From: a virus | Length of the DNA stretch: 19,468 nt | Reading direction: 5' to 3' (one strand) | Virus genome (UHGV): UHGV-1575775 | Part shown: positions 1,330 through 2,328 of the stretch, one piece after another | Position numbering within the stretch: position 1 is the first letter of the stretch | Layout of the letters: each line of letters begins with the position of its first letter | The notes under the pieces: model-generated | The model's input: the letters and a program-made list of their open reading frames with translations, nothing else | The model's database searches: none | What the model was told of the DNA's origin: nothing | Translations under genes and position numbers: made by a program

Positions 1330-2328
1330 TTATCCGTTACCGCGCGACGGTTTCTGCGTGATAAACGTCTCAAGCATCTTTTCCGCAATTGCCGACCAGG
1401 TGTGACACTGGACCTTTTCAGCATTTTTCACGCGATCAACGCGAGCAATAACCTCATCCCAATCAATCCGCGACTTGATAACCATATGGTTCACCAACTC
1501 CAGGCGATCCGGCGGAAGGCAATCGGGCGGAGTTAATATCAACGCTCCACACATTGCCGCCTCAAGAACAGTTAATCCAAGGCTTTCGGGATGCGTAACG
1601 ATAAAAATGTCACTCTTACGCAATTCAGCTGCAAATTCGGTTGCTGGTACCGGAGTCCGTCTGTATGGGGTTACCGAAATATTCCCCGGCTCAATGGTAA
1701 CCAATCCGTCATCGGTCAGCGTTTTGGCCTCATACGGAACGGTCAGGCGCTGAAGGTTCATAAGGATACTTAAGGAGTGATCAAACCCACTAACATCAAA
1801 TGCCGCGTGGTCTACAAAAATACGCAGAACATCGTCTGTTTTGGTTTCCAGATGGAACAGCTCCTGATTCGCTGCCCATCCAACATGTTTGTTAAAACGA
1901 TTATGACGCTCTAACCTGCCGGGATTATCCAGGTACCGCCAGGTATCATCGCGGACAGTAAAAGTAATATCGACTGGTGCCGAATCCAGCATAGAACCGT
2001 CATATACCTGGGCTACCCATCCAGAGAATCGGCGACACAGTTGCATGCCTATTTCCCTGGGTACCGTAGTAAAATACCTCAATCCTGGTGCCAAAATGGC
2101 CTTCGCAGAACATGCGGTCGCAGCAGTCAACACAGCTTCAACATAATCCTCCGGGCTTTCGACGCCAGGGGAATATGGACGATGGTATTGCAATGTTACC
2201 CCTGCCTCACTAAAGGCGCAGGCCAGGTTATAAGCCCACATTTCCGTATATGTTTTCACATCACTGATAGCTTCAAATTTTCGCCCAATGATCAGGATGT
2301 TCATCGGCTTTTCCTCATTCCATTGCAT
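1330..2328 (-). CDS. GT-B fold glycosyltransferase-like protein (GT4-type EX7E motif)
   Basis: C-terminal motif IFIVTHPESLGLTVLEAAMCGALILTP matches the E-x7-E signature of retaining GT-B glycosyltransferases; MNILIIGRK is a typical GT-B N-domain start. The ATG at 2328 overlaps the ban stop (TAATG). An alternative start at 2304 has a GAGGA Shine-Dalgarno 6 nt upstream. Confidence 0.55.
   Translation of the reverse strand: MQWNEEKPMNILIIGRKFEAISDVKTYTEMWAYNLACAFSEAGVTLQYHRPYSPGVESPEDYVEAVLTAATACSAKAILAPGLRYFTTVPREIGMQLCRRFSGWVAQVYDGSMLDSAPVDITFTVRDDTWRYLDNPGRLERHNRFNKHVGWAANQELFHLETKTDDVLRIFVDHAAFDVSGFDHSLSILMNLQRLTVPYEAKTLTDDGLVTIEPGNISVTPYRRTPVPATEFAAELRKSDIFIVTHPESLGLTVLEAAMCGALILTPPDCLPPDRLELVNHMVIKSRIDWDEVIARVDRVKNAEKVQCHTWSAIAEKMLETFITQKPSRGNG

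Follow-up and report, generated by a model that had tools for sequence, protein, structure and literature searches.

The dbn gene of P1-type phage-plasmids

The 19,468-nucleotide stretch of viral DNA analysed here (genome UHGV-1575775; hereafter the window) carries on its minus strand a gene that directly follows the replicative helicase gene ban. The original prediction, made from the letters of the sequence, described a GT-B glycosyltransferase-like protein of about 330 amino acids, and the gene is indeed an open reading frame (ORF) of 332 codons. This ORF is dbn, also named glt, of the P1-type phage-plasmids. It can be read in two forms:

1330..2328, minus strand: dbn, long form, 332 codons, with an ATG that overlaps the ban stop codon (ORF list, nucleotide identity to P1 and P7, annotations)
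1330..2304, minus strand: dbn, core form from Met9, 324 codons, with its ATG at 2304-2302, the conserved family start
2328..3698, minus strand: ban, DnaB-type replicative helicase of 456 amino acids (Pfam DnaB_C, 3e-108, and DnaB, 3e-35; P1 annotation)

The ORF is 96.9% identical in nucleotides and 97.3% in amino acids to Dbn of P1 (NC_005856), and 98.2% identical in nucleotides to glt of P7. Dbn of P1 (AAQ14048) and Glt of P7 (AAQ07543) are the same gene, at 97-99% amino acid identity; the P1 and P7 copies share their position after ban and before gene 5 as well as their terminator, and show allelic differences only. The protein matches PHROG 2518, to which the P1 dbn and P7 glt orthologues belong and whose family function is unknown, over 332 of 332 positions (E 5e-239). 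By Megablast, 18 phage records carry the ORF, at 95.7-99.6% identity. The window matches P1 and P7 at 97% identity across 73-86% of 19.4 kb, and the synteny is that of a P1-type genome, with ban upstream and gene 5 convergent downstream.

The P1 record names the gene dbn for "downstream of ban" and describes it as "function unknown, possible glycosyltransferase". The same gene is glt, "putative glycosyltransferase", in the P7 record and a "glycosyltransferase family 4 protein" in RCS47. GenBank has listed the gene, with its glycosyltransferase label, since 2004; nothing in the original prediction is therefore new. The remark that P1 is not known to have a characterised glycosyltransferase at this position stands in so far as the gene has no characterised function, but the gene was already annotated as Dbn, Glt or a member of glycosyltransferase family 4 (GT4). 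In two records the translation matches less well than the DNA. The dbn match in ON470617.2 (vB_EcoM-813R1, 87898-88896) has 99.6% DNA identity and a translated match of only 88.8%, and that in ON470615.2 (vB_EcoM-673R5, 9702-10697) has 97.4% DNA identity and a translated match of only 80.8%. Each record annotates two hypothetical proteins in the span of the dbn match, besides the helicase, which suggests a frameshifted copy or a sequencing error.

A GT-B fold with a conserved, putative donor-site motif

An AlphaFold model of Dbn, built on a 17-sequence family alignment, is confident, with a predicted local distance difference test score (pLDDT) of 87.5 and a predicted template modelling score (pTM) of 0.84. 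All leading Foldseek matches to this model are GT-B enzymes, with E values down to 1e-9 (GlgM, sucrose-phosphate synthase, PimB', PimA, BshA and WaaB), and of the viral models a Tupanvirus glycosyltransferase comes closest (template modelling scores 0.74/0.78). The model has two Rossmann-like beta/alpha/beta domains with an inter-domain cleft, as is characteristic of GT-B enzymes. Structure prediction followed by structural search, proposed at the outset as the way to check the assignment, thus returns GT-B as the predicted fold of Dbn, and not a non-glycosyltransferase fold.

Conservation was assessed in 60 diverse homologues of 24-49% identity. Three motifs stand out:

1543..1596, minus strand: putative donor-site motif T245-H-P-E248-S-L-G-L-T-V-L-E256-A-A-M-C-G-A262 (EX7E; conservation, alignment)
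1780..1812, minus strand: family-specific acidic/His motif D173-H174 ... D183 at the end of the first C-terminal Rossmann strand (60-sequence conservation; model strand 168-173)
1867..1881, minus strand: G150-W-A-A-N/D154 motif in the inter-domain region, nearly invariant across the family

The EX7E motif is exact (E248-SLGLTVL-E256, nucleotides 1587-1561), as originally described. E256 is invariant in all 60 homologues, together with D173, H174, H246 and G261, whereas T245, E248, S249, G251, D110, D183 and the G150-W-A-A-D/N stretch are nearly so. In the 60-sequence profile the EX7E segment is in register with MshA, PimA and the Actinobacillus glucosyltransferase 8xsg. Among 53 P1-type dbn alleles, the EX7E motif is invariant and every motif residue is unchanged; the ratio of non-synonymous to synonymous substitution rates (dN/dS) is 0.12, which indicates purifying selection. 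The idea of a decaying gene was discarded on this ratio and on the intact frames described below.

Neither the single protein nor the 17-sequence profile had a meaningful match among PDB sequences, and NCBIfam gave only a 14-bit match. A PDB match to KtrA (E 5e-5) was rejected; it arises from a duplicated Rossmann segment, each copy of which has an E value of about 0.8. Dbn is acidic (isoelectric point 5.4, charge about -10) and has no membrane segment. These features, together with the modelled fold, point to a soluble, acidic, cytoplasmic glycosyltransferase of about 324 amino acids and of GT4-like (retaining) kind. The GT4 enzymes of the CAZy classification (PimA, PimB', BshA, MshA, GlgM, WaaG and WaaB) have only 9-15% identity to Dbn and are longer, at 360-440 amino acids.

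Association of Dbn with PmgO, PmgP and PmgQ

An exhaustive profile search with Dbn yielded 360 representative clusters at E<=1e-3. Nearly all copies found in two IMG/VR scans were P1-type, and a P1-excluding alignment was used for the non-P1 loci; a scan of a genome collection gave only three Dbn loci. In unrelated backbones, the Dbn homologue lies among small ORFs with overlapping start and stop codons that belong to three families. These are PHROG 4603, labelled "alpha-2,3-sialyltransferase" and with weak MptE-like/DUF115 matches; PHROG 2111, which is DUF115-like; and PHROG 1962, labelled "glycosyltransferase" and with a DxD-like motif. Translated searches show that P1 has all three, as pmgO, pmgP and pmgQ (hdmB, hdmC and hdmD of P7), and the three genes are found in every P1-type record. 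In P1 they lie 6-9 kb from dbn, in one operon with a C1 operator and a late promoter; within the window, tblastn finds none of them.

Hidden Markov models of the partners, applied to 40 distinct non-P1 Dbn loci, detect a PmgQ-family gene in 28 and at least one partner in 32. In a first set of 19 loci, the PmgQ-family gene was directly 3' of Dbn, or overlapped it, in 12. The partners of the jumbo phage RAS14 lie 12-14 kb from Dbn in the same genome. All 22 INPHARED records with Dbn also have a PmgQ-like gene, which is present in only 35 of the 50,697 records. There is also a natural PmgO-Dbn fusion (P0088), a tandem Dbn (P0104) and a protein that joins Dbn to an S-adenosylmethionine-dependent methyltransferase (P0103). 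Two metagenome contigs (L188, 990-3389; L189, 2682-5081) have the Dbn domain within an open frame of about 800 codons, in a larger multidomain protein.

At the distant loci, the other recurrent neighbours are a TylF-type sugar O-methyltransferase, Methyltransf_11 enzymes, a mannose-6-phosphate-isomerase/cytidylyltransferase-like protein and a polysaccharide pyruvyl transferase. Such neighbourhoods have the genes of a pathway that builds and decorates glycans. When recurrent neighbours were screened for a non-enzyme that might be the acceptor, only antisense shadow ORFs and glycan-decorating enzymes came up.

Lambdoid, jumbo and aquatic phages have the set, as do a lytic coliphage of 111 kb and prophage remnants, and the hosts span Pseudomonas, Caulobacter, Xanthomonas, Pelagibacter and those of coliphages. 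Outside P1 the partners take late-operon positions: they separate the major head protein from the head-tail adaptor in the Pseudomonas phage D3, the lysis genes from terminase in Citrobacter phage phiNP, and holin from lysozyme in Serratia/Buttiauxella prophage remnants, and in a lambdoid contig they lie just 5' of terminase. In the literature searched, no statement was found that links dbn with pmgO, pmgP or pmgQ. We propose this link, as one conserved phage glycan module, as the useful result of the present analysis; it is not a published family.

Two of these loci have features of their own. In D3 (L179), orf6.5 and orf7 (5691-6409) match one PmgO-like protein (tblastn, 5864-6388) and are probably one gene split in annotation; a methyltransferase (orf13) lies among the nearby head-completion and tail genes. 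In Serratia/Buttiauxella chromosomes the pmgQ- and pmgP-like genes between holin and lysozyme are at L003 5767-7079, L004 3537-4872 and L093 5733-7068, with the Dbn homologue 3 kb away beside a LysR regulator and a fimbrial operon; these loci look like a prophage remnant that has retained the glycosyltransferase set.

Start codons, operon anatomy and transcription

The elements that surround dbn and control its expression are listed below, followed by the more distant genes of the operon:

2336..2339, minus strand: GAGG Shine-Dalgarno sequence, 7 nucleotides 5' of the Met1 ATG, within the last ban codons (sequence reading)
2313..2316, minus strand: GAGG Shine-Dalgarno sequence, 8 nucleotides 5' of the Met9 ATG (sequence reading)
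1283..1309, both strands: bidirectional intrinsic terminator hairpin, 11-bp stem and 5-nucleotide loop, between gene 5 and dbn
651..1283, plus strand: gene 5, baseplate spike OB-domain protein, convergent on the same terminator and outside dbn function (Pfam Phage_base_V; P1 annotation)
6866..6893: bivalent operator for the C1 repressor (Oban a/b), which overlaps the promoters of the ban operon (operator search, P1 comparison)
6055..6208, minus strand: tRNA-Thr and tRNA-Asn, first genes of the ban operon (ARAGORN and Rfam)
3979..4054, minus strand: tRNA with CAT anticodon, upstream of ban (ARAGORN and Rfam; P1 annotation tRNA-Ile2)
2938..2965, minus strand: weak sigma-70-like site within ban, the counterpart of the predicted P2dbn of P1 (consensus scan, 9/12 matches; P1 annotation)

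The dbn ATG (2328-2326) and the ban TAA stop (2330-2328) share base 2328, so the TAATG overlap of the original prediction exists, at 2330-2326, yet Met9 may be the start that matters. Homologues almost always begin at the Met9 position (MxILIIG) in the homologue alignment, and in the model strand beta-1 starts from residue 10 while residues 1-5 are disordered. In 81 P1-type dbn copies, taken from IMG/VR plus one genome, the 324-codon frame from Met9 is intact throughout. The ban-dbn junction reads TAATG in 71 copies and TGATG in two, and in the remaining eight a 101-codon ORF is inserted between ban and dbn, with an ATGA overlap exactly on Met9. Met9 is the sole possible start in these eight (the L083-type loci), which have an in-frame TGA upstream. 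Since the insertion is tolerated in eight copies and all 81 keep the Met9 frame, the eight-residue N-terminal extension is dispensable and the ban-dbn junction is an insertion point for cargo.

The inserted ORF, at L083 9699-10004 and likewise in L084-L088, L090 and L091, overlaps both ban and dbn and takes the place of the first eight codons of the long dbn form. A different discrepancy concerns P7 (AF503408, 4136-4999), where glt is annotated from an internal Met 45 codons 3' of the conserved family start. This start is probably mis-called; it would delete the first strand and helix of the N-terminal Rossmann domain.

The hairpin at 1283-1309 folds whichever strand is taken; the energy is -17.6 kcal/mol for the minus strand (z -4.25) and -18.1 kcal/mol for the plus strand (z -2.3). 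It is flanked on both sides by A/U tracts, with the dbn stop at 1330-1332 and the gene 5 stop at 1281-1283. A stable fold on both strands, with A/U tracts on either side, identifies it as the bidirectional terminator that had been noticed after the gene. A simple terminator scan missed the hairpin because the U run lies inside the stem.

Oban a/b consists of an exact 17-mer operator consensus and an inverted copy with two mismatches, and the operator/promoter stretch at 6866-6893 is identical to the annotated Oban/P1ban/P2ban of P1. The window has three C1 operator matches, against 0.09 expected. The third is a 17-mer with two mismatches at 10723-10739 on the minus strand, adjoining the 5' end of an RdgC-family ORF (9469-10488); its position is that of the operator annotated in P7 for the upf64.0-hrdC-dam operon. 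The expected co-expression with the helicase and the tRNAs is borne out by the layout, as dbn is in the C1-controlled ban/tRNA operon directly after the helicase. It is a lytic-cycle gene, repressed in the lysogen by C1. A scan for an internal dbn promoter found one sigma-70-like site, against 6.2 by chance, which is not evidence for independent expression.

Upstream of ban, the tRNA at 3979-4054 is labelled tRNA-Met (CAT) by ARAGORN and tRNA-Ile2 (Ile after lysidine modification) in the P1 record. The slot between the tRNAs, where P1 and P7 have tciA/terB, tciB and tciC, is filled here by an SPFH/Band-7 protein of 275 amino acids (Pfam 1e-30) and an overlapping 78-residue hydrophobic ORF (4082-5126, minus strand). 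This is a cargo swap inside the ban operon.

A glycosyltransferase in a replication operon had been taken as an unexpected clue. Among the loci examined outside P1-type elements, none of the Dbn homologues adjoins a helicase, and it follows that the helicase linkage reflects gene order in a single lineage and gives no hint of function. A role in replication, suggested by the coupling, was rejected on the grounds that only P1-type phages show the linkage and that eight of the 81 copies break it.

Proposed function

The analysis establishes the identity of the gene, its fold, motif conservation, operon anatomy, co-occurrence and fusion, dispensability and purifying selection; beyond these, we infer an enzymatic activity, a donor, a joint pathway and an acceptor. 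With moderate confidence, Dbn is proposed to be a GT4-like enzyme in a glycan-building set shared among phages. The H-x-E-S-x-G ... L-E motif of the C-terminal Rossmann domain would most likely bind the nucleotide-sugar donor, and the N-terminal domain would hold an acceptor, a hydroxyl of which receives the sugar. The gene would be transcribed from the C1-repressed ban promoter with three tRNAs, the cargo cassette and the helicase, and translated from the TAATG overlap or, more probably for the functional core, from Met9, 24 nucleotides further on. Dbn would be made on induction or infection and not in the lysogen.

Dbn, the small, DxD-like PmgQ and the DUF115/Maf-like PmgO and PmgP may form a recurrent phage-borne glycosyltransferase-like set. 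The Maf enzymes (DUF115, PF01973) O-glycosylate Ser/Thr residues of proteins in the cytoplasm, and accept the cytidine monophosphate (CMP)-activated sugar CMP-3-deoxy-D-manno-octulosonic acid (CMP-Kdo) in E. coli. PmgO- and PmgP-like proteins fall in PHROG 4603 and have weak MptE-like/DUF115 matches in Pfam (15-26 bits, threshold 34.6). PmgO and PmgP, at about 200 amino acids, are much shorter than Maf; they may be of the kind that uses CMP-activated acidic sugars such as CMP-Kdo. In lytic growth the set would draw on the sugar nucleotides of the host to assemble a short glycan. It is dispensable for laboratory plaques and is retained in nature by purifying selection.

Several observations weigh against this proposal. 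The match to Pfam Glycos_transf_1 (PF00534; amino acids 229-315) spans just the latter half of the profile, positions 83-169 of 172, and its 23.8 bits fall short of the curated 26.4, although two distant members of the Dbn family exceed that threshold (P0104, 29.9 bits; P0147, 28.4 bits). The PDB sequence searches touch GT4 enzymes only around EX7E, and hhalign gave no significant alignment of the 60-sequence Dbn profile with WaaG or WaaB of E. coli. Where the first strand of the C-terminal domain ends, one would expect a GT4 enzyme to carry the Arg/Lys pair that binds the donor diphosphate. The Dbn family has the invariant Asp-His there, in a register that comes from secondary structure only, and this may mean that the donor chemistry differs. 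Plaque formation is unaffected when dbn, pmgO, pmgP or pmgQ is singly deleted or knocked down. In P1, dbn and pmgOPQ are in separate operons; eight of the 40 non-P1 loci have no partner, several of them on contigs of 2-4 kb; and siting in late operons is common for accessory genes and no proof of a virion target.

Candidate acceptors

In the original prediction, DNA glycosylation was offered as a means of escaping restriction. Dbn would then add a sugar to a modified base, as do the T4 glucosyltransferases (AGT and BGT) and the 5-hydroxymethylcytosine and 5-hydroxycytosine (5hmC/5hoC) glycan writers (Pyle et al., 2023, preprint; Lee et al., 2026), which are phage GT-B enzymes that act on host sugar nucleotides, sometimes with several glycosyltransferases per short glycan. 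Their substrate is a base that has first been hydroxylated, either through a ThyS/dCMP-hydroxymethylase homologue or through a C5-methyltransferase together with a 5mYOX (TET-like) dioxygenase. Dmt of the window does have a C5-methyltransferase domain. However, the annotation of P7 (first 100 kb of 101.7 kb) lists neither a ThyS-like nor a TET/JBP-like gene, and the window ORFs scanned include none; the result depends on annotation, which a novel hydroxylase could escape. An in-frame dbn deletion plates normally and shows the parental restriction phenotype on EcoA, EcoB and EcoK hosts, all of them type I systems, on which wild-type P1 is itself restricted 10- to 1000-fold (PMC9024508, Table S3, Fig. 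S1). Knockdown by CRISPR interference also finds dbn non-essential, with an efficiency of plating of 1.3 (PMC10695390). Because of the deletion data, the lack of an annotated acceptor-base pathway and the acidity of Dbn, a DNA acceptor is highly improbable. A deletion with no phenotype had been named as a result that would tell against the predicted roles; the published one has none in plaque formation and type I restriction. The overall interpretation is thus partly supported: a GT-B glycosyltransferase is predicted in the ban operon, and its anti-restriction idea is contradicted. As to Dmt itself, its ORF (6884-9472, minus strand) is 862 amino acids long from a GTG, against 754 in P1, and combines the C5-cytosine methyltransferase domain with a D12-class N6-adenine methyltransferase domain.

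The presence of WaaB, WaaG and PglH among the structural neighbours of Dbn would suit an acceptor in the host envelope. Here Dbn with PmgO, PmgP and PmgQ would glycosylate a lipid-linked host glycoconjugate at the cytoplasmic face, such as lipopolysaccharide core, enterobacterial common antigen, or some other glycan linked to undecaprenyl or lipid A. The changed surface of the infected cell would keep out superinfecting phages or prevent the loss of progeny on debris. We consider this unlikely: both P1 operons are C1-repressed and silent in the lysogen, where conversion and exclusion genes normally act; phages that carry the module differ widely in host and receptor, which speaks against one host-specific glycolipid; no flippase, polymerase or initiating phosphoglycosyl transferase accompanies it; and Dbn is without membrane segments. 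A stand-alone enzyme that acts on a small molecule or a host protein, for instance by forming a sugar-phosphate or glycoside that reprogrammes metabolism or by glycosylating a host factor, is less probable again. In that case the link with PmgO, PmgP and PmgQ would reflect shared cargo islands. The best structural matches are small-molecule enzymes (the maltose-1-phosphate synthase GlgM, sucrose-phosphate synthase, BshA and tetrahydrobiopterin glucosyltransferase), dbn lies apart from pmgOPQ in P1 and is solitary, 3 kb from its partners, in Serratia/Buttiauxella, and the eight partnerless loci point the same way. The start-stop overlaps of Dbn- and PmgQ-family genes in many unrelated backbones and the PmgO-Dbn fusion, on the other hand, are hard to explain if the genes are uncoupled.

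Our leading guess for the acceptor, held tentatively, is one or more virion proteins. A phage protein would fit because the timing is lytic and late, the enzymes are soluble, no flippase or polymerase is present, PmgO and PmgP are related to DUF115/Maf, and virion glycosylation has precedents. These include the glycosylation of capsid and tail in mycobacteriophages and of capsid or fibrils in giant viruses (chlorovirus, mimivirus/tupanvirus). The likeness of such virus sets to P1 is in gene content and timing only, and no glycosylated virion protein of P1 has been reported. It counts against a virion acceptor that the P1 virion proteome paper reports none, but that study did not look for glycans, and glycosylation goes unmentioned in its main text. 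Dbn and PmgO, PmgP and PmgQ are not named among the virion proteins that it discusses.

Implications for P1 and related phages

The analysis gives dbn a new context, with pmgO, pmgP and pmgQ, P1 genes that have been without function for twenty years. A more far-reaching reading, which we regard as doubtful, is that Dbn, PmgO, PmgP and PmgQ are an unrecognised, widespread machine that makes a short O-glycan on virion proteins of Gram-negative phages, P1 included; the glycan might contain Kdo and might sometimes be methylated or pyruvylated. Deletion mutants of dbn, pmgO, pmgP and pmgQ already exist, so the module is directly and cheaply testable. If the reading is true, P1 particles would be glycoproteins, and four P1 genes now listed as "putative morphogenetic" or of unknown function would share one function. 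It would also place virus-encoded glycosylation in a model coliphage, with a bearing on phage immunogenicity, host range and engineering.

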